From Chloroflexi bacterium HGW-Chloroflexi-9 (GTDB lineage Bacteria > Chloroflexota > Dehalococcoidia > UBA2979): a stretch of DNA of 57,034 nucleotides. The stretch covers positions 1 to 57,034 of the forward strand of contig PHBR01000002.1 of the NCBI GenBank assembly GCA_002840675.1, in the 5' to 3' direction. Every line of letters begins with the position of its first letter. Position 1 is the stretch's first letter. Below, piece after piece: positions 6,740-54,248 of this stretch. The notes under the pieces were generated by a model. The model did no database searches. It saw nothing but the letters and a program-made list of their open reading frames with translations, and was not told where the DNA came from. The position numbers were made by a program, and so were the translations under genes.

Positions 6740-7900
6740 ATGCGCTTACGAATCTCCAGCAGAGTCCTTCCCGCGGCAGTCGCCGCGGGCGTGCTCGTGT
6801 TCGGCCTCGCCGGTGTCGCCTCGGCCCAGACGTCCAATCAGGCGCCCGTGGCACAGAACGACACCGCGACGACGAACGAGGACACGCCCGTCACGATCGC
6901 CGTCCTGGCGAATGACACGGACGCGGACGGGGACACCCTGTCCGTGGCCAGCGTGACGAACGGCACGAAGGGCACCGCCGCTGTCAGCGGCACCAGCGTG
7001 GTCTACACGCCGAACGCCAACCTGAACGGCTCGGACACGTTCACATACGTCGTCTCGGACGGCACGCTGACGGCCACGGGCACCGTGACCGTCACGATCA
7101 CCCCGGTAAACGACCCGCCCGTGGCGATCTCCGACTCCGTCACCGTGACGAAGGACACCGCGCAGGTCATCGCCGTCCTGGCGAATGACACGGACGTGGA
7201 TGGCGACGCGCTGACCGTCGCCTCGGTCTCGCTGCCGGCCCACGGCACCGCCGTCATCACTGATGGCACGAAGGTCACCTACACGCCGGCCGCCGGCTAC
7301 CTGGGTACTGACGCGTTCACCTACGTCGTGAGCGATGGCAGCCTCGTGTCTGCCACCACCGTGTCGATCACGGTGCAGGCCGCCACGGCGCCGCCGTCCG
7401 GCACGTCCGACAAGGTCGCCGCGGCGTGCACCGCGTACGCCTCCATGGACCAGGGTGTGTCCGCGCTCTGCTCCCTCTACCTCGGCAACCAGTTGCCGGT
7501 GTGGGCGCAGGAGAGCATTGGCGCGGCGATCCTGAAGCGCGTCAGCCACTTCAACAAGGCGGAGGTCATCTGCGCCGCCTCCGGCAACGACGCCACCGTC
7601 ACCGCGCTGTGCGGCATCTACGCCAGCTCCAGCGCGCCGGCGTGGCTGAAGAAGGACATCGGCAAGGTCATCGAGCAGTACGTGAAGGCGACGTCCAACG
7701 TCAGCACGAGCGACGACGATGACGATGACGACCACAAGGACAAGAACAAGTCCAGGAACAAGCAGAGCAGCAACCTCAGCATCGCCACGGGCAGCCAGGG
7801 CATCACGCTCTCGCTCCTCGGCAACGCTGATGACGATGGCGACGACGACGACAACGATGACGACGATGATCGCCGCAAGGGCCGCCACGGCCGTCGTTAG
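6740..7900 (+). CDS. Secreted protein with two cadherin-like/VCBS-type Ig repeats, a duplicated Cys-containing helical motif and poly-Asp tracts
   Basis: GGAGG 6 nt upstream of the ATG at 6740. Signal peptide MRLRISSRVLPAAVAAGVLVFGLAGVASA. Two repeats of the form APVAxxDxxTTxxDTPVxIxVLANDTDxDGDxLxV...FTYVVSDG. C-terminal runs DDDDDDDH and DDDGDDDDNDDDDD. Confidence 0.75.
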   Translation: MRLRISSRVLPAAVAAGVLVFGLAGVASAQTSNQAPVAQNDTATTNEDTPVTIAVLANDTDADGDTLSVASVTNGTKGTAAVSGTSVVYTPNANLNGSDTFTYVVSDGTLTATGTVTVTITPVNDPPVAISDSVTVTKDTAQVIAVLANDTDVDGDALTVASVSLPAHGTAVITDGTKVTYTPAAGYLGTDAFTYVVSDGSLVSATTVSITVQAATAPPSGTSDKVAAACTAYASMDQGVSALCSLYLGNQLPVWAQESIGAAILKRVSHFNKAEVICAASGNDATVTALCGIYASSSAPAWLKKDIGKVIEQYVKATSNVSTSDDDDDDDHKDKNKSRNKQSSNLSIATGSQGITLSLLGNADDDGDDDDNDDDDDRRKGRHGRR

Positions 7901-13968: not shown

Positions 13969-14526
13969 ATGCGGACTCACTCCGGTGAGGTCTGGGCGAT
14001 GCTCACGCTGTGTGATGAGGATCGAGAGCGCCTAGCCGAGTTCTTCTCGGCACGGTTCGGTATAGGTCGCCGGAAGTTAGTGGGGAACACCCATCTGACT
14101 GTTTATCACGCACGACGAGCGATGCCCGGAGTGGTGAACTACTCAGAACCCGCGAGCATCCGTATTCCCGCAGCGGAAACGCGGTTCATGGTGATGGCTC
14201 CCGGCGGCGAGAATCCCCGGCCCAACCTCGAACCTGCCCAGCGCAAGGTTGGCGTGCGGATCCAGAGGCAGAGCACTGTCCGATCCTCCATACTCGCTTA
14301 CCGAGAGCGTCTGCTCCGGTATGAGACCACGTCAGTCCTCGGGGGACGCCAGCCGAGCACGCTGCGGACGAGCGCCTTTGGTGCTAGAAGTTATCAGCCG
14401 CACCTCGTATTCCTGCGTGCCGGAAGCGGAGTGCCCCGTGACCTAACTCAGGTCGGCCAGGCCTTCCGATCCGAATTCGACTCGATTTTGTTAGACCGCT
14501 TCACGATTCGAGTGCGCGAGTTGTAG
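13969..14526 (+). CDS. hypothetical protein, weakly 2H-phosphoesterase-like
   Basis: 185-aa ORF in a visibly lower-GC stretch. Contains HLTV (a HxTx motif) and a second, degenerate HLVF. Alternative start at 13999. Confidence 0.4.
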   Translation: MRTHSGEVWAMLTLCDEDRERLAEFFSARFGIGRRKLVGNTHLTVYHARRAMPGVVNYSEPASIRIPAAETRFMVMAPGGENPRPNLEPAQRKVGVRIQRQSTVRSSILAYRERLLRYETTSVLGGRQPSTLRTSAFGARSYQPHLVFLRAGSGVPRDLTQVGQAFRSEFDSILLDRFTIRVREL

Positions 14527-14561
14527 CCCCTCTGACCATCCGAGCCCTGCTCAACTCCGCG

Positions 14562-14933
14562 CTAGCCAAGGCTATCCGTGCCTGTGAAGCGGAGAAGGCT
14601 CCAGAGGCTCTCCGCTTCCTCTCTGACCAGTGCCGTGTGGTGAACTCGATTGGTCGAATCGAGACACCGCAGTGTGAACGAGTACTGCCCGCCGTCAAGG
14701 GCGGTCTGAAGACTGACATTGAGGCTGTCGAGTGATTGGTAACAGGTCATTTCGACGATCACCTGCTCGCCCATCGGCTCGAATCTAGTCACGGTTGCGA
14801 TGATTCGCCGCGCCAGTCGGTTGAGTCTTCCGTCGAGGTCTGACTCACGGAGCCCTTGAAGGGGCATCTGCTGTGGCGTCCGAGCACGGCGTAGTGGCGG
14901 CAGTGTGATGATCATCCGGTATTCACGAATCAT
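14562..14933 (-). CDS. hypothetical protein
   Basis: Start moved to MIREYRMIITLPP (14933), which has GGAGG 7 nt upstream. Lower-GC region, convergent with 13969..14526. Confidence 0.4.
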   Translation of the reverse strand: MIREYRMIITLPPLRRARTPQQMPLQGLRESDLDGRLNRLARRIIATVTRFEPMGEQVIVEMTCYQSLDSLNVSLQTALDGGQYSFTLRCLDSTNRVHHTALVREEAESLWSLLRFTGTDSLG

Positions 14934-15130
14934 CCCCAGCCTCCGAGGAGGATCGTGGATGGGAACGGCATGAGTACGTTGAACGGTCGCGAGACGCACC
15001 GCTGCTGAGGGACGACTATCTCGATTGGGCGCACGGCGCCCACTCCTTTCTGGTCCTGCCTGCGGCTGATTTCGCGGTCGGCGCAGGCAGGACCACTTCA
15101 ATCTATGAAGTCATTCGTGCCCCGGTTCAC

Positions 15131-15166
15131 AAATGGAAGGGGCGGCCTCGGCCGCCCCTTCCATTT
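15131..15166 (-). terminator. Strong GC-rich hairpin, probably the ancestral terminator of the ribonucleotide reductase gene
   Basis: aaatggaaggggcggcc-tc-ggccgccccttccattt forms perfect 17-nt inverted arms with a tiny loop. It lies ~33 nt downstream (minus strand) of the orphan stop at 15200-15202. Confidence 0.6.
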
Positions 15167-15196
15167 GCCCGTCGGCGTGTTGTCCGTCCGTATCCA

Positions 15197-15235
15197 TTCC
15201 TAGCTACACCCGCTCGTCGCACCGCAGTTCATGCA
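15197..15235. repeat. Left copy of a 39-bp direct repeat (att-like); orphan last 11 codons plus stop of the RNR gene
   Basis: ttcctagctacacccgctcgtcgcaccgcagttcatgca matches 56744-56782 at 36/39 positions. The minus strand reads CMNCGATSGCS-stop and is preceded by an in-frame TGA. Confidence 0.75.
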
Positions 15236-15439
15236 TCACGAGAGGGGCGTTCAGGGGCGTCAACCGACGCCATTTCAGATTCAGCGAGCCTCGCGAACCT
15301 CCACGATCGGTCATGGCCGTTCATGGAAGTGGCCTCCTAGTGGCCTCCTGCTCGGGGGTGAAGTCGCATTGGGATCTGGACGTGCGCCGAGGGCGTTCAC
15401 AGACGTTCGTTGTCGTCCACTACCGTCCATGATCATCCA

Positions 15440-15628
15440 TTATTGGCCAGGGACGGTCATGTCCTGACCGCCCCAGGTACGCATCGACACGCCGGTGTTG
15501 AAGGAAACAGTGCGAGCAACTGGATCGGAGTGCTGGATGCTGTACCCGAGTTCACTAACCGCCGCGACTGCCGCCCGGTACGCGCGTTCAGGAGTCGCTT
15601 CGACAGCAACCTCTCTCGTGTCCGCCAT
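15440..15628 (-). CDS. Short ORF, possibly a truncated gene
   Basis: 62-aa ORF (MADTREVAVEATPERAYRAAVAAVSELGY...). It ends abruptly and no family is assigned. Confidence 0.25.
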   Translation of the reverse strand: MADTREVAVEATPERAYRAAVAAVSELGYSIQHSDPVARTVSFNTGVSMRTWGGQDMTVPGQ

Positions 15629-15800
15629 CTGGTGCGCCCTAACGATGCCCTAGTGCCGCTGATTCTCACGCATGCCGTCAAGGGACGGCAGCATCGTCAG
15701 TCATGGCCTGGTATTTGCATCGTTGGGCAGGGCTGACGGTCGTCACTCAGATCGGGTTCTGCTGTTGTTTCGTGATGGGTCGAAAAGGTAGGGGCACCCC

Positions 15801-15829
15801 TGCTGCTCTATCCCCTGAGCTACAAGGGC
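15801..15829 (-). other. tRNA 5'-half-like fragment (acceptor 5' strand plus D-arm only)
   Basis: The minus strand reads GCCCTTG-TA-GCTC-AGGGGATA-GAGC-A. No pairing anticodon arm, T-arm or 3' acceptor strand follows. Confidence 0.3.
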
Positions 15830-15968
15830 GTACCCCCGGTCTACCCAACCGGCGCGTGGGGGCGATCAGACGCTCGCCATCGCGTGTCTGCGTGAGCGGC
15901 AAGCGGGGCCGGATCGGGCGGAGCCGACGCCAGCACCAGAGGTGCGCCGAGAGCGGGACAGTGGGGCC

Positions 15969-17282
15969 CTACAGGTAACCGAGCTGGCGCCCGGCGGCGG
16001 TGAGTTCGTCGCGGAAGCGCGGATGTGCGAGCCCGATGATCGCTCGTGCCCGTTCACTGACGGAAGCGCCCTTGAGGCAGGCCGTGCCGTACTCGGAGAC
16101 GAGCCAGTGGACTTCGGTACGCGGCGTTGTCACTACGGCGCCGGGTGTCAGTCTCGACACCACCCGGGACACCGCCCCGCCCCGGGCCGTGGAGTAGAAG
16201 GCGAGGATGGATCTCCCGCCACGGGAGTCGAACGCGCCCCTGGCGTAGTCCATCTGGCCACCCGTCCCACTGAATTGGGCGGTCCCGAGTGACTCCGAGC
16301 AGCACTGTCCGGTCAGGTCTACTTCCAGGGTGGAGTTCACGGAGACCAGTCCGTCGTTTCGCGCGATGTTCGGGGGGAAGTTGACGTATGACACCGGGTG
16401 CGCCTCCACGGCGAGGTTGTCGTCGAGGAAGTCATACATCCGCCGGGTCCCTGCTGCGAATGTGAACACTGCCCGGCCGGGATGGAACGTCTTCCGTGAA
16501 CCATCTGCGACCCCACTGACGATGAGATCGACCATCGACTCGACAAACATCTCGGTGTGGATGCCGAGATGACGATGTCCGGCGAGATTCGCGGCCACCG
16601 CGTTGGGCATTCCGCCGATCCCGAGTTGCACGCACGCACCGTCCGGGATCATGTCAGCGATCGTGCTACCGATGATTGAGTCTTCTTCGCGTGGGGCCGG
16701 GGAGAGCAATTCCGGCAGGGGCGTGTCCGCTTCCACGACCACGTCAACGTCGTTGAGGTGTACCCAGCCGCTTCCGTGGACGCGTGGCATATGGGTGTTC
16801 ACCTGTGCGACGACGTAGCGTGCCGACTCGATCGCCGCCGGCGCGATGTCGACGCTCACTCCGAGGCTCATGTAGCCGTTGTGGTCGGGAGGGGAGACGC
16901 TGACCAGAGCCACGTCTACATCCATGAACTCGCGGATGAGCCTGGGGATCTGATGGAAGTAGGCCGGCGTGAACGTCGCCTCACCCGCCTGGATGAGTGG
17001 GCGGTCGACAGCACTCGCAAACATGGATTCCCACCTGAGCGCGCCGCGGATCTCGGGCGCGAGGATCGTGCGCGCCATGCCTGCCATCGGGATGAGCGAG
17101 GTGGCACGGGTGCTCTGGAGGCCACCGGATCGGATGCGCTCGGCGAGCGCCTCCAGCAGCGCGGTTGGCTCGCCCGCGGCCATGCTCACGACGATGCGGG
17201 CACCGTGAGGGATCGACGCGATGGCGTCATGGGCGGAGCGTCGCTTCTGCTCGTAGTTGCTCCGCTGCCCGCCAGTCTCCAT
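15969..17282 (-). CDS. Acetyl-CoA hydrolase/transferase family protein (4-hydroxybutyrate/succinyl-CoA:acetate CoA-transferase-like)
   Basis: 446-aa ORF, start probably METGGQ (17282). Blocks GIGGMPNAV, LGIHTEMF, VNSTLEVDLTGQ and SGTGGQMDY are typical of the family. Confidence 0.8.
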   Translation of the reverse strand: METGGQRSNYEQKRRSAHDAIASIPHGARIVVSMAAGEPTALLEALAERIRSGGLQSTRATSLIPMAGMARTILAPEIRGALRWESMFASAVDRPLIQAGEATFTPAYFHQIPRLIREFMDVDVALVSVSPPDHNGYMSLGVSVDIAPAAIESARYVVAQVNTHMPRVHGSGWVHLNDVDVVVEADTPLPELLSPAPREEDSIIGSTIADMIPDGACVQLGIGGMPNAVAANLAGHRHLGIHTEMFVESMVDLIVSGVADGSRKTFHPGRAVFTFAAGTRRMYDFLDDNLAVEAHPVSYVNFPPNIARNDGLVSVNSTLEVDLTGQCCSESLGTAQFSGTGGQMDYARGAFDSRGGRSILAFYSTARGGAVSRVVSRLTPGAVVTTPRTEVHWLVSEYGTACLKGASVSERARAIIGLAHPRFRDELTAAGRQLGYL

Positions 17283-18226: not shown

Positions 18227-18648
18227 GGGCGGCCACATGATACGCACCTGTCGAGCCGCCCTGCTGCCGGTAGCTCGGGATGCCTGTCACCCGTCCTCGC
18301 AACGCCGATGGGGGCCAACCTGCTGCCGTCGTCCCGTGAGCGCACCCCGGCTGCCAGCACCCACTGCCCGTGTCGGGAGCATCCCAGTACGCGAGGACTG
18401 CTTCGGCCTTCTTGTCTTCGAGCGCCGTCGACGTCTTGGGCGGTTGCGCGCCCCGACCCCGGCAAGCTGACTGATGAAGCCCGCTACAAGCGGCACGGAA
18501 GCTGCACACGAGCCGGATGACGTCCCGGAGGTTCCGGACCTGGTTCAGGTCGCCCACGACCAGGTAGTCGCGCGCGCATGTCCAAGCTCGTTTCAAGGGC
18601 CGCTCGCTTGGAATCTTCGCTGTTTCCCGGACAGTACGTGTGAGGCGA

Positions 18649-19523
18649 TCATGATGCCGCATCGGACGAGGGAGCGTGTGCTCGCTCGTAGTCGACGGGG
18701 CTCAGATCGCTGATCGAGGTGTGGCGGCGGTGGGGGTCGTACCAGGCTTCGATCCACTCGAAGATCGCAGCCGCCAACTCTGCCCGACTCGCCCAGTAGC
18801 GGCGACGGTTGAGCAGCTCCTGCTGCATGGTCGCCCAGAACGACTCCATCATCGAGTTGTCGACGGCGGAGGCGACCCGCCCCATCGACCCGAGCAGCCC
18901 CGCCGCGCGCAGCCTCTGGCCGAACGCCCAGGCCGTATATTGCGTGCCGCGATCGCTGTGCACGATCGTGCTCCGCGGGTGGCGTTGCCAGCGGGCCATC
19001 TCGAGCGCATCGACCACGAGCTCGGTGCGCAGGTGGTCGGCGATCGACCAGCCGACGATGCGTCGCGAGAACACGTCCAACACGGCGGCGCAGTAGACCT
19101 TGCCATCCCCGGTCGGGTGCTCCGTGATGTCGGTGAGCCAGAGTCGGTTCGGGGCATCAGCGACGAGCCGGCGGCGCACGAGGTCGTCGTGGACGGCGGG
19201 GGTGGGTGCCGGCGCTCTCCACGGCGTCGATAGATGCCGTGGATCTGGGCCACGCGCATCAGCCGGGCGATGCGGTGGCGGCCGCAGCGGATGCCCCGCC
19301 CGAGGCGGAGTTCCTTGTGCATCCGCGGCGCACCGTAGCTCTCCCGCGACATCGCGTGGATCTCGACGATCTGCGCGGTGAGTGTGGCGTTCGCCACGGA
19401 TCGTGCTGACGGCGCTCGGCCCCGCCATTCGTAGTACCCGGATGCTGAAACCTGAAGCACCCGGCAGGCCACCGCCACAGGCGTCCCCTGGGCGGCGAGT
19501 TCCTGGGCGAGCCGGAAGCTCAT
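18649..19523 (-). pseudogene. IS3-family transposase orfB (DDE/rve integrase core), frameshifted
   Basis: The N-terminal part (MSFRLAQELAAQG...IHGIYRRRGERR) is in the 18849..20000 frame. The remainder (PAVHDDLVRRRLVADAPNRLWLTDITEH...HSDRGTQY...DNSMMESFW) is in the 18649..19428 frame. Alignment with copy B indicates a 1-nt deletion near 19195-19215. Confidence 0.75.
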
Positions 19524-19807
19524 TTTGGGAGCACGTTCTCGCGCGCGAAGAACGCTGCTGCCTGCCGGAGGATGTGGTTCTCCATCTCCAACACCCGGTT
19601 CGCGCACCTCAGCCGAACCAGTTCCTGGTGCTCCTCGGTCGTCAGGCCCGGCCGATGGCCCCGGTCGATGTCTGCCTGTTTGACCCACCGCCGCAGACAG
19701 GACTGGGCGATCCCGAGATCCGCTGCGATCCGGGCGACTGGCTGGGCACCCTGCCGGGCCAGCTCCACGGCCCGCTGCCGAAACTCTGCTGGATATGCCT
19801 GTGGCAT
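19520..19807 (-). CDS. IS3-family transposase orfA (HTH)
   Basis: 95 aa: MPQAYPAEFRQRAVELARQG..IAADLGIAQSCLRRWVKQ...LEMENHILRQAAAFFAREN. Confidence 0.8.
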   Translation of the reverse strand: MPQAYPAEFRQRAVELARQGAQPVARIAADLGIAQSCLRRWVKQADIDRGHRPGLTTEEHQELVRLRCANRVLEMENHILRQAAAFFARENVLPK

Positions 19808-20008
19808 CTCGGACTCCTCCCTGGGCGAACAAGCGCCTCAGTCTAGGTGTCCGGGAGACCGGGGCAGGACCCCCTTCTTCGCCATCTCGTCCGAACCTGA
19901 ACTCTCGGTCAGGACACATCTGTGCCCTGACCCGTGAGGCTGAGGACAGACGCTGCTGGGGTGAGAGGCCCGGCGTCGCACTGGGCTGTGGCTGGTGCAT
20001 GGCCGTCG

Positions 20009-20030
20009 CCGAAGCGACGTACCGCTTCGG
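20009..20030 (-). terminator. Hairpin downstream of the ferredoxin gene
   Basis: ccgaagcg-acgtac-cgcttcgg (8-bp stem), 29 nt past the stop at 20059. No U-tract. Confidence 0.3.
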
Positions 20031-20058: not shown

Positions 20059-20331
20059 TCAGGCGAGCAAGGCGCGGGCGGCTTGCTGGTCGCGGAAATA
20101 CAGGGCGTTGATCTCCGCGAACCGTGTCTCTCCCGGCGGGAGCTCTTCCATCAGATAGATGGCGGAGTCGGGACACGCGGGCACACACGCGCCGCAGTCA
20201 ATGCAGCCATCCGGGTCGATGAAGCACATTCGGTCGACGCCTTCTTCGACGTGGACGCATTGCACGGGACAGATGTCGAGGCACATCAGGTTCAGGTGGT
20301 CGAGGCAACGCGAGGAGATCACGTAGGGCAT
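20059..20331 (-). CDS. Ferredoxin with two Fe-S cluster motifs (7Fe/8Fe type)
   Basis: 90 aa. Contains CLDICPVQC and CIDCGACVPACP motifs. Confidence 0.85.
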   Translation of the reverse strand: MPYVISSRCLDHLNLMCLDICPVQCVHVEEGVDRMCFIDPDGCIDCGACVPACPDSAIYLMEELPPGETRFAEINALYFRDQQAARALLA

Positions 20332-20354
20332 GTGAGGTTCTTAACGGTGAGTGC

Positions 20355-21167
20355 TCACCGCAGCGGTTGGCCGTCCCCGGCCCCATTGCGATGTACGTGC
20401 TGCTGTTCCCGGTAGTAATCAGAGAACACGCCGCCGTACCGGGTGGTCTTCGCGGCGCTGACGCTGTGCACCAGTGAGTCCTGATGCGCGGCGGCAAACC
20501 GCTGCCGCTCGACCTCGGTGGCTTCGGCAATTAAGCAGTCTTCGCGAGGGACGAAGAGTACTTGCCCAATGGGGCCGCTCCCGATGACGCTGGTGATGTC
20601 TCCCTTCTCCAGGATGACGCGGAACTCGGTCTCGCAGGGGAACCAGTCTGTCTCGACGCGCGTGGTCAGGGTGCTGACGGCTGGCCGCTGCGGATCATTG
20701 AAGACGGCGGTGTAGACGGTGTCCCAGCCAGCGGGGGTGATGAAGTTGTGCGCACCGCGGAGGCCAACGGATCCGGGTGGCGAGTTGATACCCGAAGTGA
20801 CCGCTGCGACGAGGGTGACCGCTGTGGCTGCATCGAAACCGGCGTGCTCGTCCAGGATGGTGACCTGTGTGTCGTCGAGCCCGCCGGGGCCGGCGGAGCG
20901 GCGCACCTGGACCACGAAGGCGGGACTGCGGAGGCCGCGATCGCCGTTGATGAACCAGGTGATCGCGAGGACGCCGTTCCCGCGGGCCTGCAACTGGACG
21001 GACTCGTGATCGTGGAGGGGCGGGTAGACGAGGAAGCCAAGGCGGTTGGCATCCTCGATCGCCGGGAGCATGCGGGCGTGTTGGGGAAGGAAGGCACGAC
21101 GATTCTCGGGTGCGGGCGGGCGTCCAACACCGGGGCGCAGCCGGTTCGGGACGACACGGACTTCCAT
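20355..21167 (-). CDS. Protein of unknown function, single copy of an unassigned ~250-aa domain
   Basis: 270-aa ORF paralogous to both halves of 21176..22870. Shared blocks: ENRRAFLPQ, GFLVYPPL, NFITPAGWD, VETDWFP, PIGQVLFVPRE. Confidence 0.7.
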   Translation of the reverse strand: MEVRVVPNRLRPGVGRPPAPENRRAFLPQHARMLPAIEDANRLGFLVYPPLHDHESVQLQARGNGVLAITWFINGDRGLRSPAFVVQVRRSAGPGGLDDTQVTILDEHAGFDAATAVTLVAAVTSGINSPPGSVGLRGAHNFITPAGWDTVYTAVFNDPQRPAVSTLTTRVETDWFPCETEFRVILEKGDITSVIGSGPIGQVLFVPREDCLIAEATEVERQRFAAAHQDSLVHSVSAAKTTRYGGVFSDYYREQQHVHRNGAGDGQPLR

Positions 21168-21175
21168 ACCTCGCC

Positions 21176-22870
21176 TTAGTCCAGCGGCCCGCGGCGGTTG
21201 CGCTGCCGGGGGCGGTTGCCCTTCACGGCATCTGGCTCCTCGCGCTTCGGGGGGGTGCGGGCCTCGTCCTGCATGGAAGGCAGGGCATCGGCGCTCCCGT
21301 CGCGCCGTGCCTTCTGGTGGTCACGGTAGTGATAGGTGAAGGTCGCGCCGTAGCCGGTGGTCTTCGCTTTCGTGGCCCGCTCGGCCCAGTACTGCTCCTG
21401 CGTTTCGACGAATTGCTGCTCTTCAACGGGTGACGCATCGCGGGAGAGGATCTCTTCTCGCGGGAGGAAGAACGCCTGCCCAATCGGTGCATCGCCAACG
21501 ATACTGAACGTGAGGCCGGGCTTCAGCACATACCAGCAGGCCAGGACCTGGGACTCACCGTCCGTCTGGACACGCGTGGTGAGAGGCGTCACGAGCGGCC
21601 GCACGATGTCGTTGAACAACGAGGTGACGACGGTGTCGACGCCGTCCGGTGTCACGAACAGGTATGCGGAGCGGATGCCGATCACACCCGGTGGAGCGTT
21701 CGCCCCGGCAAACAGTGCGGTGAGCAGGGTGCGCGCGGACGCCTCGTCGTACGCGCCGCTGTGCTCCGTCAGCGTGATGGCGGCGCCGTCGATGTCGCCG
21801 GGCTCTCCAGCGCCGATCCGTGCCGTGAACGCGGGGAGACGTTGCCCCAGCTCATCCGCGACATAGAACGTGATGAGCATCTCACCACGGTCCCGCATCA
21901 CCACCTGAGCGGATTCCGTGGGCGCGAGGGGCGGGTAGAGCAGGGCACCGAAGCGGTGGACGTCCTCCACCACCGGGCAGAAGCGGGTCTGCTGGGGCAG
22001 CCAGGCCCGGCGATTCTCGTGGGTTGGGTGACGGCCGAGGCCACCCCGCAAACCAGCCGACACCACACCGACCTCCAGTGCCGGCGCGGCGACCGATTCG
22101 GCGGCGTGCGGCGTCCTCGGAGCGGGGAGGGTGTTGGTGCCGGGCGCCAGATCAAAGAGGCGGAGCGTGACTCGGGGCACGAACAGCACCTGGCCGAGCG
22201 GCGTGTCGTGGGTGAAGGAGATGGACTCGCCCCGCTCCAGGGGGAAGCGGAACTCTGTGTTCTGCGGGTACCAGTCGGTTTCGACCAGACAGTTGAAGGA
22301 AGGAATCCCGTCGGGACGAGCCCCGTTGGGGGGGATCATGCAGAGGGAGTCCCACCCATCCGGCGTGATGAAGTTGTACGAACTAAGGAAGCCGAACTGC
22401 CCGGCACTACCGGGCATGATGTTGGTGGTGATCGCGTCAACGATCAGCTCAGCTTCCTTGGCTGAGATGCTCGCGTGGCGGTCGAGGTAGACCACTTCCT
22501 GATTGCCGAGCCCGCCCCAGCCCGCCGATCCGCCGATGCGCACAGTGAACACGCGCATCGGGCGGGAGTCGGGACCGGCAACGAACATCGTGAACAGGAA
22601 ATCGCCGGTCTCCAGCAGCCGGGCTTCGATCGACTCGCCCGGATGCAGCGGTGGATACACCAGCACACCGCTTTCGGTTGCGGCCCGGAGCGCAGGGTGC
22701 AAGAAGGGAGGTGCCTGGATCGTGTCCGGGAGCCGGGCGCGCTCTGGGCGTCGCCCCACGTCGCGCCTTCGGTAGTTGGGGACGAGTTTGACGTGCATGC
22801 GAACCTTCGGGAATCGCACGAGGTCAAACGCAGGGCGATCCGGGCTGACCGTAGTGTCGTGGTCCGCCAT
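21176..22870 (-). CDS. Protein of unknown function, tandem duplication of the same unassigned domain
   Basis: 564-aa ORF. The N-half carries GVLVYPPL, NFITPDGWD, VETDWYP, PLGQVLFVPR. The C-half starts near 22081 and carries ENRRAWLPQ, GALLYPPL, LFVTPDGVD, PIGQAFFLPRE. An alternative start at 22798 (MHVKLVPNYRRR) aligns with the start of the 270-aa paralog. Confidence 0.7.
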   Translation of the reverse strand: MADHDTTVSPDRPAFDLVRFPKVRMHVKLVPNYRRRDVGRRPERARLPDTIQAPPFLHPALRAATESGVLVYPPLHPGESIEARLLETGDFLFTMFVAGPDSRPMRVFTVRIGGSAGWGGLGNQEVVYLDRHASISAKEAELIVDAITTNIMPGSAGQFGFLSSYNFITPDGWDSLCMIPPNGARPDGIPSFNCLVETDWYPQNTEFRFPLERGESISFTHDTPLGQVLFVPRVTLRLFDLAPGTNTLPAPRTPHAAESVAAPALEVGVVSAGLRGGLGRHPTHENRRAWLPQQTRFCPVVEDVHRFGALLYPPLAPTESAQVVMRDRGEMLITFYVADELGQRLPAFTARIGAGEPGDIDGAAITLTEHSGAYDEASARTLLTALFAGANAPPGVIGIRSAYLFVTPDGVDTVVTSLFNDIVRPLVTPLTTRVQTDGESQVLACWYVLKPGLTFSIVGDAPIGQAFFLPREEILSRDASPVEEQQFVETQEQYWAERATKAKTTGYGATFTYHYRDHQKARRDGSADALPSMQDEARTPPKREEPDAVKGNRPRQRNRRGPLD

Positions 22871-22970
22871 TGGCCAGGGGCCAAGGTCACTCCGGTGACA
22901 GGGCTAACGTCACTCATCCGGCTGCGTCGGCATCCGCCGACTGGCGACCGGACACCCGCCGTGCGCGCAG

Positions 22971-23144
22971 TCATCGCGAAGGCGAGCTGGCGTCCACGGC
23001 GACCAATTCCAGCGGGCGGGTGATCTCCAGGCGGAACCGGCCGCGGCCCATCTTCTCGATGCGCAGGTAGTCGCACCGTTCCTCGGGCCGCTTGCGAATG
23101 GCTCCGGCCGCCGAGAGTAATTCGGCGCACCGGTCTCCCAACAC
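22971..23144 (-). CDS. Possible 57-aa mini-ORF between the membrane protein and the duplicated-domain gene
   Basis: Hand translation: GTG at 23144 directly after the upstream stop, VLGDRCAELLSAAGAIRKRPEERCDYLRIEKMGRGRFRLEITRPLELVAVDASSPSR. Below the ORF-track length cutoff. Confidence 0.2.
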   Translation of the reverse strand: MLGDRCAELLSAAGAIRKRPEERCDYLRIEKMGRGRFRLEITRPLELVAVDASSPSR

Positions 23145-23600
23145 TCATGCGTTGAGAGCTTCGGAGGTCGATGCACCGAAGCACCGGTGGCGGACCCAGA
23201 CGACGCCGGCGAGCAGCGTGCCCGCAAGGATGGACACGCCACCCACGATCACAAGGATGGGCGGCAGACCGAACAGAACCTCCGCCAAGATGCCAAGAGG
23301 CATGAGCAGTCCGGCAAGCGTCAATCCGCCAATGGCAGAGCGCTGACCGACCGTCCCGGGCATGTGGGGGAGCAGGAGTCCGATGACGATGTTTACCAGC
23401 GAGAACAGCGCCCCGTGCACATGAGCGAGCCGTGTTTCGAAGTGCGTCCCTTCCGCGTAACTTGCTGCCCACTCCTCCGCATCCGGAGCGAAGTCACGCA
23501 GATAGATGAGGACGAATCCCATCACCATGAACCCGGCGAGGAAGATGAGACCGGCACCGATGTTGTGTGCACCGGTGGACAGTGAGGCACGATTACGCAT
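23145..23600 (-). CDS. Four-TM membrane protein with conserved-looking His motif
   Basis: Start at MRNRASL (23600), with GGAGA 7 nt upstream. Four hydrophobic segments; RLAHVHGALF motif. Confidence 0.6.
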   Translation of the reverse strand: MRNRASLSTGAHNIGAGLIFLAGFMVMGFVLIYLRDFAPDAEEWAASYAEGTHFETRLAHVHGALFSLVNIVIGLLLPHMPGTVGQRSAIGGLTLAGLLMPLGILAEVLFGLPPILVIVGGVSILAGTLLAGVVWVRHRCFGASTSEALNA

Positions 23601-23655
23601 CCGGCGGTCTCCGTTCTGCAGCCTCAACTTCTCCCTTTTACGTGCGGCCTCATTT

Positions 23656-24114: not shown

Positions 24115-24667
24115 ATCGTCTCCAGCTTCGTCATCCGCACCAGGTGGTGGGCGGCGGCGGTGAGCTTGAGGCAGAGTTCGTTCCGCGCCCGACCGAGGTA
24201 GCACAGCTTGCGCGGCCCCCGACGGTCTTTCCCCAGCCGAAGACCTCCTCCACCCGCTTGCGCCGCCGCTGGCTCACCACGTAGCCCGAGTGCCGCGTCG
24301 TGCGCCCATCGATCGCGCTGCGGCGGTTGCGGTTGTTCTGGGCAACGTGCGGGGTCACTCCGCACTCCCGCAGTCCCGTCACGAAGTCGCGCGTGTCGTA
24401 GCAGCGGTCCGTGCCCAGCGTGCTCCGCCCGCCCCCGCCCCGACCGCCGGCGCCGGCGGTCGAGCATCGCCAGCGCTGCCGTCCGCTCTGCGGTCCCGTG
24501 GCCAGCATCAGTTCCGCGTCCACCGCCAGGCCGTGGCGGTTGTCGGTGAGCACGTGCCCCAGGTAGCAGAGCTGCGTCGCCTGCCCACCCTTCTTGAAGA
24601 GCCGCGCGTCGGGGTCGGTCGCGTACGTCAATCTCGGACTTCGCTGCTCTCCTTTCGGGGGCGCCAT
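24115..24667 (-). pseudogene. IS5/IS1182-type DDE transposase remnant (C-terminal part, multiple frameshifts)
   Basis: Pieces lie in two frames: TDPDARLFKKGGQATQLCYLGHVLTDNRHGLAVDAEL, then TAERTAALAMLDRRRRR, then TLGTDRCYDTRDFVTGLRECGVTPHVAQN..RRSAIDGRTTRHSGYVVSQRRRKRVEEVFGWGKTVGG, then RKLCYLGRARNELCLKLTAAAHHLVRM. The N-terminus is missing. Confidence 0.6.
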
Positions 24668-24699: not shown

Positions 24700-26058
24700 T
24701 CAAATTGCCGACCCGTGGAGCCTCCGGAGCGAGCGCACGTACCGCCTCGCGGCGACGGCGTTCAACGCGGCAACGGCGGCGGCGACGAGGAGTGCGACCG
24801 CGGTGAGGATGCCTGCGGCGCCCATCAATCCCCGCGTCACCTCGCCGATGCTGTCATCGACCAGCGGCGGGAACACCCGGAACGGCCAGGCGATGATCAG
24901 GAGGACGAACGCGCCGGTCAGCCAGTTCTCACCGACGACCCGCCCGATGAGGAAGCGCTGCAGGACCACGTGCGACATCGCGATCAGCAGCGGCGCCACA
25001 AACCCCAGCGCCAGCATGTGCCGCGTGGCTCCGGTCTCGTGCAGCGTGACGGGAACGCCGCCCGTGAGGACCAGGACCGCCTGCACGGAGAGCGTGACCG
25101 CATAGACGACCAGGGCAAACCACGCCACCGGCACCAGGACCTGGGCGCGGTGTGGGCGGCGTCGCCACGACCTGACCGCTCGTGCAATGTCGAGCGCCCA
25201 CGTCGCCCAGAACAGGCCCGCGGCGAAGAGTAGGTCACCGGCGGCAGCCAGGGCCGGGAAGCCGGGCAGGCCGAACCCGGTGCTTCCGACCGCCGAGACG
25301 ACGAGGCCGACGTTGACGAGGCCCCAGAGCACACGCTGCCGTTCGACCGGCACCGGGGGCAGGCCCAGGTGCCCCACGAAGGCACGGAGCGCTACCGCGA
25401 TGGTGACGTTGATGACGAAGCCACGCAGGAAGAACTCTGCCATCAGATGTGATTCATCGAACGACGTCGCCCCCGACGAGAGGTTCCGCGAGGCGACGAG
25501 TTCGGCCAGCGCTGCCGCGACGAGCCACACGGCCCCGGTCCGGAAGAAGAGTGGATGGAGGTCGACCCGCAGCGGCCGGGCCGGCCGGATCCTCAGGACA
25601 ATGGCTACGAGCAGCAGCGCTCCGGCAACCATCGAGGCCGCACCGGCCACCACCATGACCTGCCCGGCCACATCGATGAACCGTCCTGTTGCCGACGCGA
25701 TCGCGCCCCCGCCGAGAAGGGACAGCACGAGCACACGAGAGGTGAGGGGCACGGGCGGGCGGCCGTTCAGCCGCACGATGAACTCGAAGAGGAGCACCAC
25801 GATGAAGACGGCGAACCATCCCCATAGTTGTAGTTCGCCATGCGCCTGGACGGTGGCGGACCATTGGTCTCGCGGGACGCCGGCCTCAAGTGCTGCGATC
25901 ACGCCAAGCGTGAGCCCAGCGGTTGCGGCGAGCACGAGCGAGGCGGCCATCGCCGCGGCGGGGAACCAGAGCCGCGGCGGCATGAGCCGCTCCTCCCCCG
26001 CCGGGGTCCGCACGGCCACCACCGGAAGCGGGGTCGGACCACCGCCGCTCATCATCAT
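24700..26058 (-). CDS. NnrS-like polytopic membrane protein (copy 1)
   Basis: 452 aa with about 12 hydrophobic segments. VQAHGELQLWGWF and ATRHMLALGF blocks. Paralogous to 29861..31273. NnrS assignment is from memory of the His-containing TM motifs. Confidence 0.55.
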   Translation of the reverse strand: MMMSGGGPTPLPVVAVRTPAGEERLMPPRLWFPAAAMAASLVLAATAGLTLGVIAALEAGVPRDQWSATVQAHGELQLWGWFAVFIVVLLFEFIVRLNGRPPVPLTSRVLVLSLLGGGAIASATGRFIDVAGQVMVVAGAASMVAGALLLVAIVLRIRPARPLRVDLHPLFFRTGAVWLVAAALAELVASRNLSSGATSFDESHLMAEFFLRGFVINVTIAVALRAFVGHLGLPPVPVERQRVLWGLVNVGLVVSAVGSTGFGLPGFPALAAAGDLLFAAGLFWATWALDIARAVRSWRRRPHRAQVLVPVAWFALVVYAVTLSVQAVLVLTGGVPVTLHETGATRHMLALGFVAPLLIAMSHVVLQRFLIGRVVGENWLTGAFVLLIIAWPFRVFPPLVDDSIGEVTRGLMGAAGILTAVALLVAAAVAALNAVAARRYVRSLRRLHGSAI

Positions 26059-26099: not shown

Positions 26100-26480
26100 C
26101 TACTTCGCCGTCGGGTCCGCCAGCGTCAGCAATAGCGTCGAGTCCTCAACGGCCTCGACTGAGTGGCGCACGCCGGAGTCGATAGCAATAAGCCGACCGG
26201 ACTTCACGTCGAGTTCGTCACCGCGCACCCAGGCCCGGACGTGACCATCGAGGACCTGGACGGTCACCGCCCCCGGCGCGGCATGCTCCGCGAGCCGGGC
26301 GCCAGCGTGCAGATGTGTGAGTACGACACTGAGGCCGCCCTGACGGACGAGCGTCACCCCACGCCGGTCCTGACCCGGAGCCGCCGAGCCGTGCAGAGCC
26401 GTTACCGCCTCCGCGAGGTCGATTGCGAGGTGCTCGGCCGAGAGATCGTGGGTCCGCAGGTAGGTGTGTCCTTCGGGCAT
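26100..26480 (-). CDS. Cupin-domain protein (copy 1)
   Basis: Start at MPEGHTY (26480), GGGAG 7 nt upstream. Beta-barrel-type sequence (LHAGARLAEHAAPGAVTVQVLDGHV). Paralog of 48470..48886. 41 nt upstream of NnrS-like copy 1. Confidence 0.6.
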   Translation of the reverse strand: MPEGHTYLRTHDLSAEHLAIDLAEAVTALHGSAAPGQDRRGVTLVRQGGLSVVLTHLHAGARLAEHAAPGAVTVQVLDGHVRAWVRGDELDVKSGRLIAIDSGVRHSVEAVEDSTLLLTLADPTAK

Positions 26481-26557
26481 CTGTGGGCTCCCATCCACGC
26501 ACTCGGATGCACCCGAGCGAACTGTTCTCATTATCGTGCCCGCGTGCCCGCTGCCGA

Positions 26558-26573
26558 TGTAACGAAAGTCACT
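26558..26573. promoter_or_regulatory. CRP-type palindrome, box 1
   Basis: TGTAA-CGAAAG-TCACT in the divergent intergenic region, centred ~85 nt upstream of the cupin ATG. Confidence 0.4.
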
Positions 26574-26813
26574 GCTCGCGGCGGACGCATGCAGTCACCT
26601 GTGAGAGGCGAGACGCTGCGGGTAAGGCTGCTCGGGGCGACCGAGAGGACCCGGACACCACGGTCCGATCACGGTGATGCCCACGAGCATACTGATCTCC
26701 AGCACACCCGGAACAGCGTTCCCTCCCGCCGTGACATGCTCGAACGGCGAATGATGAGGGTTCCCGTTGGCCGGGTGTGTCAGCACCTTACCGGCGACAC
26801 GCGAGGTAGCGTC

Positions 26814-27386
26814 ATGTCCCTCCCGGAACCGTTCGCACACCTCCTCCGGGAGCATGAACGCATCGCCGACGCCGTGGGGCGCGCTCGCGGGATCACGGAG
26901 GCTGCCGCCGAGTACGGGCGGCCGGACCTGGTGGCGGCCATGGTCGACGAACTGCAGCAGCTGCAGAGATTCATGTCGCAGGACCTGGCCTCACACATCG
27001 CCCAGGAGGAAGAGGCCCTCTTCCCAGCCTTCCTGGAACTCACGCAGGACCGCCGCCTCATCGATGAGTTGACGGTGCAGCACGACCGCGTCGGCGTGCA
27101 GCGTGAACTCATCAGCGGCATCCTGAGCGCCCTCGACCACCATCATGACGAGGTGGAGGTCGTTCGCGTTGGCCTCGCGGACAACCTCAGCCATGCCATC
27201 GGCGGCATCACGTCCGAGGTCCAGCGATCGCTGCTGGCTGGCGTGCGTCAGCTGGACTGGCTGCTGCAGGGTCACTTTGGCGACGAGGAGGACGACCTGT
27301 TCGAGCCCGGCGCCGAGGTCTTCTCATCGGAGCGCCTCGACAGCCTCGCCGCTCAACTGGAGGTCGTCCGCCGTCGATTCACCTGA
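26814..27386 (+). CDS. Hemerythrin/HHE cation-binding domain protein (1)
   Basis: Internal ATG at 26814 (MSLPEPFAHLLREHERI...). Spaced H/E motifs (REHERI, HIAQEEEALFP, QHDRV, HHHDE, GHFGDEEDDLF). Confidence 0.7.
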   Translation: MSLPEPFAHLLREHERIADAVGRARGITEAAAEYGRPDLVAAMVDELQQLQRFMSQDLASHIAQEEEALFPAFLELTQDRRLIDELTVQHDRVGVQRELISGILSALDHHHDEVEVVRVGLADNLSHAIGGITSEVQRSLLAGVRQLDWLLQGHFGDEEDDLFEPGAEVFSSERLDSLAAQLEVVRRRFT

Positions 27387-29532: not shown

Positions 29533-29868
29533 ATGATGGTGCGCTGCGGATGGACCGAGATCCTCGACCCGCATAGTCGTCAGACCATCGCGCGCGGACT
29601 CCTGTTCGTCCGCCACACGCCCTTGCCCTACCCGATGGAGGGTTGGTGGGCCGGCGAAATCATGTTCCTCCGCGGCGAAGGGGCGCTCGACCGGCTCAGC
29701 CGCGAGATCTGGGTGCTGGGCCGACGCCAGGGCTCCAACCAGTGCTGGATCCAGGTGACCTCGGTGGAGCCCGCGTGGGTGCCTTCGGGCCTGCGCGCGA
29801 CTGCCCACATCACGAGCTATGACGAGGAGTTCCCGGCGTTCATGAGCGAACTCGGGGGCGATGGCTGA
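29533..29868 (+). CDS. hypothetical protein, unknown function
   Basis: 111-aa ORF with GGGAGG ~9 nt upstream. Trp-rich, coding-like composition. Its stop overlaps the NnrS-like copy 2 start (ATGGCTGA). Confidence 0.5.
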   Translation: MMVRCGWTEILDPHSRQTIARGLLFVRHTPLPYPMEGWWAGEIMFLRGEGALDRLSREIWVLGRRQGSNQCWIQVTSVEPAWVPSGLRATAHITSYDEEFPAFMSELGGDG

Positions 29869-31273
29869 CCCGCAGGGCCGCGGCGGACGCCAGTTGGACG
29901 GGAGTGTCATGCGAGTGTCCAGCCGCGGCGGAGCCGGGCGCGGCCCGCACGTCGCGTTTGTTGCCGCCGCGCTGCTGTTCGCACTCCTCGGTGGACTGCT
30001 CCTTGCGCTTGCCCTGCCGATTGATGCCCTGGCGCGTGGCTCGACCGGCGGCCGCTGGACCGCATACGCACAGGTGCATGGACACCTGCAGACGGTGGGG
30101 TTCGTCGGGCTCTTCATCGTCGGGATGGCGTATCGCCTGCTGCCGGGATTTGCGGGCTTCACGCGCCTTCGCTTCCCTGGCCTGGTGTGGCCCTCGTTCT
30201 GGCTGCTCACCGGCGGCGTGCTGGCGCGCACCATCGGGCAGTCGGTGGCAACCTCCGCTCCGTTCGCGGCGATGATGGCGGGCGGCGCGGCAGCGGAGGC
30301 GGCCGGCGCGGTGCTCGTCGCGGTCAATATCGCCCCGATGAGCTGGCACGCGGCACGCGCGGGTCGACCGTTCGCACTCTTTTTCCTCGCGGGCACGGGC
30401 TGGTTCGTGCTTCAGGCCGTGCTGGGCGCCATCTGGCTCGCGCAACTGGCCGCCATTCGCGGCACCGTGCTCGCACAGGACCGCGACGGCCTGCTCGTCT
30501 TCCTCCAGTTGTTCGGCTTCCACCTGATGTTCATCCTCGGCGTTGGGATCCGGTCGTTCCCGGTGCTGTTCGCGGCCCACCCCGCGACAATGCGTCGCGC
30601 GCTGGCTGCCTGGGCGCCCGTGCAGGTCGGGATCGCGATGCTCGTCATCGGTGCACTGGTCGAGGCCTGGCGAGCGGGACGCGGCTGGGTGGCCGAGGAC
30701 GCTGGGGCGGCCCTCGCGGGTGTGGGCCTGGTCATGGCCGTGTCCCTCACGGGTTGGTGGCGCGCGCCGACGCGCGTACGACCGGCTTCCCGCCCGTTCA
30801 CCTACACGCTCCAACCCGCGATGGCATGGCTCGCAGTCGCCGGTTGCCTGCTGTCGGCATTCGCACTTGACGGCCTCGTTCGAGGCGGGGCGCCCACGGC
30901 CGCGCAGTGGGACGCGGTGCGCCACGTTGTGGCGATCGGCGTCGTCCTCATGACGATCGTCGGCATGGCACAGCTGATCGTGCCGGAGCTGGCGACCGAG
31001 CGACTGGCCGGGCGGCAGGGCGCCTGGCGGGGGATCGCCTTCGGCGTCGCGCTGTCGCTCGCCGTCGTCCTGCGATCGTTCCCGCGCCTGCTCCCCGTAC
31101 AACTGCAAGGAACATGGGTCTACTGGGGAATGGCGGTGGCGGCGCTCACAGCCATCGTCGTGCTTGCGCTGCTGGCGTTCTACTTTGCGCGCGGCGTGCG
31201 GAACCTCCCGGACGGCGCGGCGACGACGGGCGAGCGGCACGAGCGCCCCGGGCCTCCGCGTGAGGACTGGTGA
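29861..31273 (+). CDS. NnrS-like polytopic membrane protein (copy 2)
   Basis: 470 aa with about 12 hydrophobic segments. AQVHGHLQTVGFVGLFIVGM and VRHVVAIGVVLMTIVGM blocks. Alternative start at 29909. Confidence 0.55.
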   Translation: MADPQGRGGRQLDGSVMRVSSRGGAGRGPHVAFVAAALLFALLGGLLLALALPIDALARGSTGGRWTAYAQVHGHLQTVGFVGLFIVGMAYRLLPGFAGFTRLRFPGLVWPSFWLLTGGVLARTIGQSVATSAPFAAMMAGGAAAEAAGAVLVAVNIAPMSWHAARAGRPFALFFLAGTGWFVLQAVLGAIWLAQLAAIRGTVLAQDRDGLLVFLQLFGFHLMFILGVGIRSFPVLFAAHPATMRRALAAWAPVQVGIAMLVIGALVEAWRAGRGWVAEDAGAALAGVGLVMAVSLTGWWRAPTRVRPASRPFTYTLQPAMAWLAVAGCLLSAFALDGLVRGGAPTAAQWDAVRHVVAIGVVLMTIVGMAQLIVPELATERLAGRQGAWRGIAFGVALSLAVVLRSFPRLLPVQLQGTWVYWGMAVAALTAIVVLALLAFYFARGVRNLPDGAATTGERHERPGPPREDW

Positions 31274-53945: not shown

Positions 53946-54248
53946 ATCTCGCCTCCCTCGACCTGTGGGGAGTGCCAGTGTAGTTGTGGCACCACACCTT
54001 CTTAGGGGCCGGAACAGGCGACGGTCGCTAGGACTTGGGTGGCCTCCTCGGATCGGATTGTTCCTGCCGCCGAACTACTCGACGATTCGCCGGGCTGGCC
54101 TGGTAGCGTGAATTGCAGTCAGCCTGCAGACGATCGGCGTACTCGGAATGACAGGATGCGGGCTTCACAGCCCGCCTCTCACTAGGTCGTCGATGCTGGT
54201 GCTCTTGAGCCTGCCCCGGTTTCCCGGAGTGGTTGGGTGTAGAGGGCA

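Follow-up and report, generated by a model that had tools for sequence, protein, structure and literature searches.

A rare Dehalococcoidia gene cassette of three DUF6065-type paralogs with a predicted dUTPase-like fold and a dedicated ferredoxin

The proteins considered here are encoded by a small gene cassette, made up of three paralogous domains (A, B and C) and a ferredoxin (Fd), on contig PHBR01000002.1 of the Dehalococcoidia member Chloroflexi bacterium HGW-Chloroflexi-9 (assembly GCA_002840675.1); the whole stretch analysed, positions 1 to 57,034 of the forward strand (57,034 nt), is referred to as the window. At the level of predicted fold, the described systems that come closest are the homotrimeric dUTPases and dCTP deaminases. 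In the trimeric dUTPases, the active sites combine motifs of all three subunits. In the Epstein-Barr virus (EBV) dUTPase, duplication and fusion left one active site. This enzyme (2bsy) and the tandem-domain dCTP deaminase (2r9q) are precedents for duplicated, fused dUTPase-fold domains that replace the homotrimer, with active sites that are fewer and asymmetric. To our knowledge, dUTPases are not associated with a ferredoxin, and we know of no redox chemistry on the dUTPase beta-barrel scaffold. At the level of sequence, the relevant family is DUF6065 (PF19541), a catalogued family for which we know of no function and which is common in uncultured soil and marine bacteria; a literature search for DUF6065 or PF19541 found no mention of either. 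The ferredoxin has its described counterparts in the FdxA-type 7Fe ferredoxins of the Azotobacter/Mycobacterium/Thermus type.

Like the homotrimeric dUTPases and dCTP deaminases, the A/B/C family has a block resembling motif IV, (I/L)GQV(L/F)FVP, and its C-terminal tail, following the barrel, sits where the motif V arm of dUTPases does. Unlike dUTPases, its members are about twice the size, with a beta-meander/helix subdomain as an insertion and a basic arm conserved at the N-terminus, and they show no recognisable motif I Asp or glycine-rich motif V. With respect to the two-domain enzymes, the cassette differs in having a separately encoded third paralog, and the orthologues of all three are sometimes unfused. 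The cassette ferredoxin has the same Cys spacing as the FdxA-type proteins and aligns from its N-terminus with both the FdxA_Actino and the FdxA_Protbact models, but, unlike FdxA, it represents a distinct subfamily of 90-103 aa in which a particular C-terminal segment, (A/P/T)LYF...AAR, is conserved. The constant association of three diverged paralogs with a ferredoxin of their own suggests that the rare Dehalococcoidia cassette encodes an undescribed multi-subunit redox enzyme.

A conserved cassette of three paralogs and a ferredoxin

The functional unit consists of the AB fusion gene, gene C and the ferredoxin gene, and of four genes where A and B are separate. A denotes domains of the type found in the N-terminal half of the fusion, B those of the type found in its C-terminal half, and C those of the type of the 270-aa protein. 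In the window, the cassette comprises the following features:

22151 to 22798, minus strand: domain A, residues 1-216 of the AB fusion protein; the paralog without the tail
22082 to 22150, minus strand: A-B linker, residues 217-239; its sequence is not conserved in the alignment, and the predicted local distance difference test score (pLDDT) falls to 64-79 in the AB model
21176 to 22081, minus strand: domain B, residues 240-540 of the AB fusion protein, plus the stop codon
20355 to 21167, minus strand: gene C, 270 aa; the paralog closest to the single-copy family members
20059 to 20331, minus strand: ferredoxin gene, 90 aa, with a 7Fe FdxA-type Cys pattern

A preliminary description of this DNA had joined five minus-strand open reading frames (ORFs) into one operon, and all five appear in the ORF list where it had placed them. 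Specifically, the ORF at 23145-23627 encodes a membrane protein, of 151 aa when read from the ATG at 23600, which follows GGAGA; the remaining ones are at 22971-23144 (57 aa), 21176-22870 (564 aa), 20355-21167 (270 aa) and 20059-20331 (90 aa). Since the homologues all begin, in the alignments, at a Met matching residue 25 of the 564-aa ORF, the AB gene most likely spans 21176-22798 and encodes 540 aa. The intergenic gaps of 0, 100, 8 and 23 nt given in that description hold for the starts it had chosen; as the AB start moves to 22798, the gap between the 57-aa mini-ORF and AB becomes 172 nt. The public call of the AB gene (P0121, 496 aa) begins at V69 of the 564-aa ORF, with the conserved N-terminus removed.

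The paralogy of the three domains, proposed at first from inspection of the sequence, was borne out by BLASTP. The 270-aa protein shares 42% identity over 268 residues with the second half of the 564-aa ORF (E 2e-73) and 40% with the first half (E 8e-39), and the two halves share 30% identity with each other (E 2e-20). The sequence blocks reported as common to the three copies are seen in these alignments, as is the restriction of the C-terminal tail to the 270-aa protein and the second half, which begins at about 22081 as reported.

By sequence and gene-order comparison, the order A, B, C, Fd was shown to be conserved over seven Chloroflexota loci, namely the window and six others. In Fu_MAG_70, a Dehalococcoidia metagenome-assembled genome, separate genes of 227, 274 and 279 aa precede a 90-aa ferredoxin gene, and each window domain has there its specific orthologue: D227 for the N-terminal half (50% identity), D274 for the C-terminal half (48%), D279 for the 270-aa protein (56%) and the ferredoxin for its own counterpart (53%). 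A and B are separate genes also in L090/L091, and are fused in the Chloroflexota genome AMX-MBFR-23 (L010/L106; 527 aa), in L089 (532 aa) and in L107 (508 aa), while L009 holds a partial A, B, C, Fd cassette at a contig end. Two more fused AB proteins are known from short contigs, and natural AB fusions make up at least six protein clusters. The window domains are 50-64% identical to their orthologues for A, whether stand-alone or fused, 48-55% for B and 56-60% for C. Among the loci examined, none carries A, B or C without the other two, and the genes flanking the cassette vary from locus to locus.

The ferredoxin gene lies directly downstream of C in seven of seven cassettes, with 52-68% identity between the encoded proteins, and within the loci examined a ferredoxin gene directly follows an A/B/C-family gene only in cassettes. 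In four cassette loci, 4 nt are shared between the C stop and the Fd start, suggesting translational coupling. The window protein matches Pfam Fer4_7 (E 4e-10) as well as the NCBIfam models FdxA_Actino (78.2 bits, equivalog cutoff 125) and FdxA_Protbact (62.7 bits, cutoff 135), in both cases under the cutoff. Its Cys pattern is C9-x7-C17-x3-C21-P ... C43-x2-C46-x2-C49-x3-C53-P, and C9, C17, C21, C25, C43, C46, C49 and C53 are invariant in six cassette ferredoxins; from this pattern we infer a 7Fe type with one [3Fe-4S] and one [4Fe-4S] cluster. The matches to Fer4_7 and FdxA_Actino and the position behind C in all seven cassettes uphold the earlier proposal of a real and dedicated ferredoxin.

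In GTDB species genomes, 340 relatives were found, and their best 80 loci were inspected. Three of these 80 loci hold the cassette, while about 75 are single genes (singletons) with no same-strand ferredoxin gene within 7 kb. As a metagenome scan with an A-type profile also gave no cassettes beyond those already found, the cassette is rare. The preliminary description had made its case depend on homologues co-occurring with a ferredoxin: this association is found in every three-paralog cassette and is missing from most homologues, which are singletons. Cassette genomes retain a singleton copy (L014, L021, L024), and the cassette is therefore an addition rather than a replacement.

Neighbour-joining trees recover each of A, B and C as a monophyletic group (50 of 50 bootstraps), with B and C as sisters (45 of 50). 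The three domains were thus shown, by this comparison of sequences, to be ancient paralogs, each forming its own orthologous group, and the triplication is older than the divergence of the cassette-bearing lineages.

As a separate observation, two tRNA genes (7488-7558 and 7624-7695 of L106) lie directly upstream of the AMX-MBFR-23 cassette; they may mark an integration hotspot, of which this is a single instance.

Family, predicted fold and residue losses

A faint resemblance to DUF6065 had been suggested in the preliminary description. It holds for the 564-aa ORF, as the AB protein scores 49.3 bits against PF19541 (E 5.8e-13; gathering threshold 26.6), with the best stretch in domain A, and it does not extend to the 270-aa protein, which at 12.4 bits (E 0.11) falls under the threshold. 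Weak PF19541 matches occur in 37 of 45 relatives (best E 3.6e-7), most members of the A/B/C branch, gene C included, scoring under the Pfam threshold; NCBIfam has no model for the AB protein or the 270-aa protein. The ETDW and PxGQ blocks are common to the Pfam family and to this branch. A family search returned at least 899 clusters (90% identity) at E 1e-3 or better, annotated throughout as hypothetical or DUF6065 and coming mostly from Dehalococcoidia/Chloroflexota, Acidobacteriota (Vicinamibacterales) and Gemmatimonadota. When 1.84 billion cluster representatives at 50% identity were searched with a profile, only 231 matches were obtained, many of them fragments, which marks the family as a compact and sharply bounded subfamily. 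Judged from these profile and sequence matches, the A/B/C domain is a divergent branch of DUF6065 and a compact outlying subfamily of it.

In a 45-sequence alignment of singletons and B/C-type members, 28 columns, including charged residues, are invariant across phyla, and the alignment contains many invariant Arg residues together with the acidic/aromatic E-T-D-W block. A variant architecture was observed in the metagenomic relatives P0127-P0132, which are single-copy proteins of 313-346 aa carrying, after the tail, a C-terminal SEC-C zinc-binding motif (PF02810; ...CPCGSGRKYKKCHG).

For the gene C product, an AlphaFold2 model was obtained with pLDDT 86.8 and a predicted template-modelling score (pTM) of 0.85. 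When this model was compared with the PDB by Foldseek, the top 50 matches were all trimeric dUTPases, with E values from 2.4e-4, probability 1.0 and a template-modelling (TM) score of about 0.67 normalised to the dUTPase target. The model of the 540-aa AB fusion has pLDDT 87.8 and pTM 0.86, the latter indicating confident packing of A against B in the prediction. Its top match was the monomeric two-domain EBV dUTPase (2bsy; E 9.6e-4, TM score 0.39 normalised to target), and it also matched the tandem-domain dCTP deaminase (2r9q) and human cytomegalovirus (HCMV) pp71. A BFVD search gave dUTPases again and also some phage proteins, about 250 aa long and uncharacterised, that matched almost end to end (TM score 0.55-0.58). 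The PDB and BFVD matches are limited to the dUTPase/dCTP-deaminase fold, with probability 0.99-1.0 and best E values of 2e-4 in the PDB and 3e-5 in BFVD; the highest TM score is 0.71, normalised to dUTPase, and the match is at fold level, with high root-mean-square deviation values. The A/B/C fold is thus predicted to be a beta-barrel of the dUTPase/dCTP-deaminase type.

A side observation from the BFVD search concerns three uncharacterised phage proteins of about 230-250 aa, A0A6J7WVD9, A0A6J5LC89 and A0A1D8KKM2 (Synechococcus phage S-CAM3), which match the C model over nearly the entire length of the model with TM scores up to 0.58, a better match than that of canonical dUTPases. On the basis of these models, the extended A/B/C-type fold may also be present in phages.

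The likeness in fold has no established counterpart in sequence homology. Searched against PDB sequences, a profile of the family alignment gave zero matches even at E 10, and no significant dUTPase or DCD Pfam match was found in the 45 members, one of which shows a weak DCD_C match (E 0.18). Since this profile search, the hhalign comparisons and the forced alignments (detailed below) all failed to connect the families, the domain is assigned to the dUTPase-like fold and placed outside the dUTPase family. The preliminary description could place the domain in no characterised family; the structure search now provides a dUTPase-like fold, with the enzyme family not confidently assigned. While the DUF family is already catalogued and the fold itself is known, the assignment of this fold to the DUF6065-type family appears to be undescribed, and the same appears to hold for the conserved cassette of three paralogs and a ferredoxin with differential residue loss.

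To follow the divergence of the paralogs, 55 alignment columns with at least 95% conservation among 101 singletons served as the reference set. C keeps 50 of these columns (5 lost), while A has lost 18 and B 9. The losses of A are E21, R24, L27, P28, R32, C34 and V36 in the ENRRAxLPQxxR motif of the N-terminal arm, and further S41, R137/G138, D149/T150, Y152, P162, R170 and the entire C-terminal tail (T242, G245, Y252); A retains W148 and the E-T-D-W, T-E-F-R and P-x-G-Q-V-x-F-x-P-R blocks. In B, the missing positions are G93, W148, W175, T180, E181, R183 (now W) and V203, plus S41 and Y152; the N-arm motif, R137 and R170 are still present in it, as is the tail. Only S41 and Y152 are lost from both A and B, the others falling in separate sequence blocks. 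In addition, A has features of its own, namely an invariant GGSAGWGGLG loop and two invariant Cys residues. An (L/M)QD motif located 8-12 residues past the RDHQKARR tail is present in 11 of 11 B and 5 of 13 C sequences and in none of the 101 singletons (window 21176-21260 for B); this cassette-specific motif is a candidate docking peptide.

The genomic context of the single-copy relatives was also considered. In Dehalococcoidia, the singleton is the first gene before two Opp/Dpp-type ATP-binding cassette (ABC) permease genes, at a distance of 21-331 nt and in the same orientation, and a gene for SBP_bac_5 (family-5 solute-binding protein) is often found divergently oriented upstream. This context was confirmed by Pfam at about a dozen loci (L005, L014, L018-L027, L029); greedy ORF clustering of the neighbours was noisy, owing to high GC content and spurious antisense ORFs, and only the Pfam-confirmed ABC association was used. 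The importer context is the sole recurring hint at a substrate, and it favours a role in processing a small molecule taken up from outside over one in nucleotide housekeeping. For the Gemmatimonadota singletons, a link to cobalamin was considered and rejected, because a cobalamin riboswitch (L003 8935-9069; L031 7912-8049) lies between the singleton and the TonB receptor/cobalamin-salvage operon.

Proposed mechanism and alternative readings

We propose that A, B and C assemble as an obligate hetero-oligomer served by the ferredoxin, a model that draws on analogy and to which, taken as a whole, we give an even chance of being right. The likeliest assembly would be a pseudo-trimer, formed in the window by one AB polypeptide and one C; this arrangement is suggested by the multi-subunit active sites of the trimeric dUTPases and by the duplicated, fused EBV enzyme. 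On such a pseudo-trimer, with A devoid of the N-arm, two Arg residues and the tail, and B devoid of the aromatic/acidic core hairpin, the separate losses would allow only some of the inter-subunit sites to stay complete, so that one or two complete composite sites would be left. The co-translated 7Fe ferredoxin would act as the private electron carrier of the complex. As the singletons have no ferredoxin, redox coupling would be derived and specific to the cassette; the cassette would then be the redox-coupled descendant of an enzyme that ancestrally did without a ferredoxin. The locus can be seen as a natural experiment in which, in a few Dehalococcoidia, a single gene became three interdependent-looking paralogs with a private ferredoxin. 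If both the heteromer and the redox coupling prove true, the dUTPase fold would gain its first redox-linked member, and the cassette would stand as a clear example of an oligomeric enzyme undergoing subfunctionalisation.

Several results weigh against this model. In hhalign comparisons, the family aligned with E. coli Dut at 8.7% probability and with an 8-sequence dUTPase profile (E. coli Dut plus seven phage dUTPases) at 1.8%, neither value being significant, and just 19-22 columns were aligned, pairing the PIGQVxFVP block with dUTPase motif IV (ERIAQMIFVP). Forced global and low-mact alignments to dUTPases gave two conflicting registers for motif III; given these conflicting registers and the hhalign values, a residue-by-residue mapping of the catalytic dUTPase motifs was dropped. 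The AB model reaches a TM score of at most 0.39 with the two-domain dUTPase relatives, and a trimer-like geometry is therefore unsupported by it. The overlap of the residues lost from A and B is 2, against about 3 expected, a departure from independence that is not significant (Fisher p = 0.49), so that "complementary" loss is a description rather than a demonstrated constraint. No shared invariant Cys/His cluster marking a redox cofactor site was found in A, B and C, and the role given to the ferredoxin is read from gene adjacency alone.

A bolder version would make the cassette a ferredoxin-dependent enzyme of a new kind, built as an asymmetric A-B-C pseudo-trimer on the dUTPase barrel, with two paralogs partly disabled, one or two composite active sites left over, and the ferredoxin docked at a newly freed interface or at the (L)LQD tails. 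We put it forward tentatively, as a possibility that falls well short of likely. If true, it would add electron transfer to the dUTPase-fold repertoire and would offer a first approach to the function of DUF6065-type proteins in soil and marine members of the Chloroflexota, Acidobacteriota and Gemmatimonadota.

The differential residue losses bear directly on the possibility that the paralogs are independent isozymes, with A-B and C separately homo-oligomeric, acting on related substrates within one catabolic cluster, and the ferredoxin serving just one of these enzymes or else another pathway. Single-copy relatives evidently act alone, as the singletons at about 75 of the best 80 GTDB loci indicate, C keeps nearly all the conserved residues, and Dehalococcoidia/SAR202-type genomes commonly contain paralog arrays that handle related substrates. 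Self-sufficient isozymes are, however, difficult to reconcile with an A that is without 18 of the 55 near-invariant positions, whole tail included, or with a B lacking the core hairpin residues; moreover, the A-B fusion is recurrent, the gene order is fixed, and no paralog was seen alone in the loci examined. On balance, we regard independent isozymes as improbable.

The predicted fold calls for a second alternative, a non-redox nucleotide enzyme, in which the family would be a highly diverged hydrolase or binder of the dUTPase/dCTP-deaminase kind and the ferredoxin would be either its partner, in a structural or regulatory capacity, or a conserved but unrelated neighbour. The confinement of the fold matches to the dUTPase superfamily is consistent with it, as are the alignment of PIGQVxFVP with motif IV, the many invariant Arg residues with the E-T-D-W block, and the weak DCD_C match in one member. 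The sequence comparisons described above point the other way, with the low hhalign probabilities, the lack of a significant dUTPase or DCD Pfam match in the 45 members and the unrecognisable motifs I and V. In addition, the Dehalococcoidia singletons are found in Opp/Dpp-type ABC importer loci and not in nucleotide-metabolism loci, and a hydrolase is not expected to have a translationally coupled ferredoxin. This alternative is, in our view, no less doubtful than that of isozymes.

Herpesvirus dUTPase-related proteins and phage dUTPases act in signalling, and a non-enzymatic role, with the dUTPase-fold proteins as regulators or scaffolds and the ferredoxin as a redox sensor, would fit the loss of conserved residues from A and B and the Foldseek matches to HCMV pp71 and other non-catalytic dUTPase-related proteins. 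The 28 columns invariant across phyla, charged residues included, are instead typical of an active site, and the singletons are associated with transporter genes; we therefore consider such a role very unlikely.

With the hetero-oligomer served by a ferredoxin as the preferred reading, the cassette is a well-defined and experimentally tractable candidate for new enzymology, whose key mechanistic steps are those we infer here. Being small (about 2.8 kb) and self-contained, it should make heterologous expression and structure determination straightforward.

Neighbouring genes and other features of the window

The remaining features near the cassette, some of which the preliminary description had counted as parts of the operon, are the following:

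24131 to 24667, minus strand: DDE_Tnp_1-type transposase fragment, 178 aa; Pfam E 9.8e-4, under the gathering cutoff
23145 to 23600, minus strand: four-transmembrane (4-TM) protein, 151 aa, with an HVHG motif; outside the conserved module
22971 to 23144, minus strand: mini-ORF, 57 aa; outside the conserved module
20009 to 20030, minus strand: hairpin with an 8-bp stem and a 6-nt loop, 28 nt past the ferredoxin stop codon
18622 to 19859, minus strand: IS3-family element with 26-nt imperfect inverted repeats; orfA 19520-19807, orfB 18649-19428

That description had proposed a five-gene mobile operon bracketed by insertion sequences (IS) and headed by the 4-TM protein, a model suggested by five same-strand ORFs with short gaps and IS-related sequence on each side, which we consider scarcely tenable given that the 4-TM family is unrelated, widespread and absent from the six other cassettes, that the mini-ORF has no homologues and is followed by a 172-nt gap before AB, and that the IS families differ and the IS3 element has decayed. 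The cassette has the 4-TM gene, the mini-ORF and the IS elements as neighbours only incidentally.

Specifically, a tblastn search of 88 cassette and family loci, including the six other cassettes, found no homologue of the 4-TM protein, and in AMX-MBFR-23 the cassette is on contig BTUI01000001 and the orthologue of the 4-TM protein (76% identical) on BTUI01000009, so the 4-TM protein does not head a conserved operon as had been thought. Hydropathy analysis of the 151-aa protein gives four transmembrane segments. Its family counts at least 1360 clusters of about 135-155 aa, with 55-82% identity across Chloroflexota, Myxococcota, Proteobacteria and Gemmatimonadota and no Pfam model. The closest relatives adjoin a Crp/Fnr regulator gene, and remoter ones are near thioredoxin/AhpC, rubrerythrin or protoglobin genes; these frequent neighbours suggest a redox or oxidative-stress role for the 4-TM family. 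The mini-ORF has a coding-like GC content by codon position (0.67/0.53/0.83). It showed no match in Pfam, PADLOC and PHROGs and no homologue in any of the fetched loci, and its place in the operon was not sustained.

As for the IS debris reported on the two flanks, the downstream side does hold a bounded IS3-family element (rve and HTH_Tnp_1; inverted repeats at 18622-18647 and 19834-19859), the orfB of which (18649-19428) is broken by an additional frameshift that makes this copy look decayed; the upstream side holds the weak DDE_Tnp_1 fragment. As the two elements belong to different IS families, they do not indicate a mobile unit. No direct repeat that could be a target-site duplication was found at the ends of the IS3 element, and among the called genes at the six other cassette loci, whose flanks are unrelated, there are no transposases. 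The idea of an IS-bracketed module that travels as a unit fails on these results. The sole other IS3 copy, 77% identical to the element at 18622-19859, is at 54247-55460.

The hairpin at 20009-20030 is present as described, with its 8-bp stem, and is a possible terminator for which the evidence is weak: a U-tract is absent, the folding z-score is -1.1 and 23 of 200 shuffled sequences fold equally well. It was missed by the terminator scan, and the promoter and terminator scan gave nothing above chance level. Rfam returned no cis-regulatory RNA for the region or upstream of the other cassettes. An origin in defence or phage genes was rejected, with zero matches in PADLOC and PHROGs.

Elsewhere in the window, the GC content falls to 0.60-0.64 at 14001-17000, against about 0.68-0.72 in the rest of the contig, and the stretch between about 13500 and 15969 has no confident gene calls. 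An actinomycete origin of this high-GC contig was considered and rejected, because its RlmD protein falls in one cluster, at 90% identity or more, together with proteins of Dehalococcoidia metagenome-assembled genomes. Upstream of the DDE_Tnp_1 fragment, a polytopic membrane protein of 452 aa that matches no Pfam or NCBIfam model (24700-26058, minus strand) is encoded divergently to a 407-aa hemerythrin-domain protein (26163-27386, plus strand), and a weakly COX1-like membrane protein is encoded at 29861-31273. Together with the 4-TM gene, these three genes may represent a redox/gas-sensing neighbourhood split by the IS fragment.

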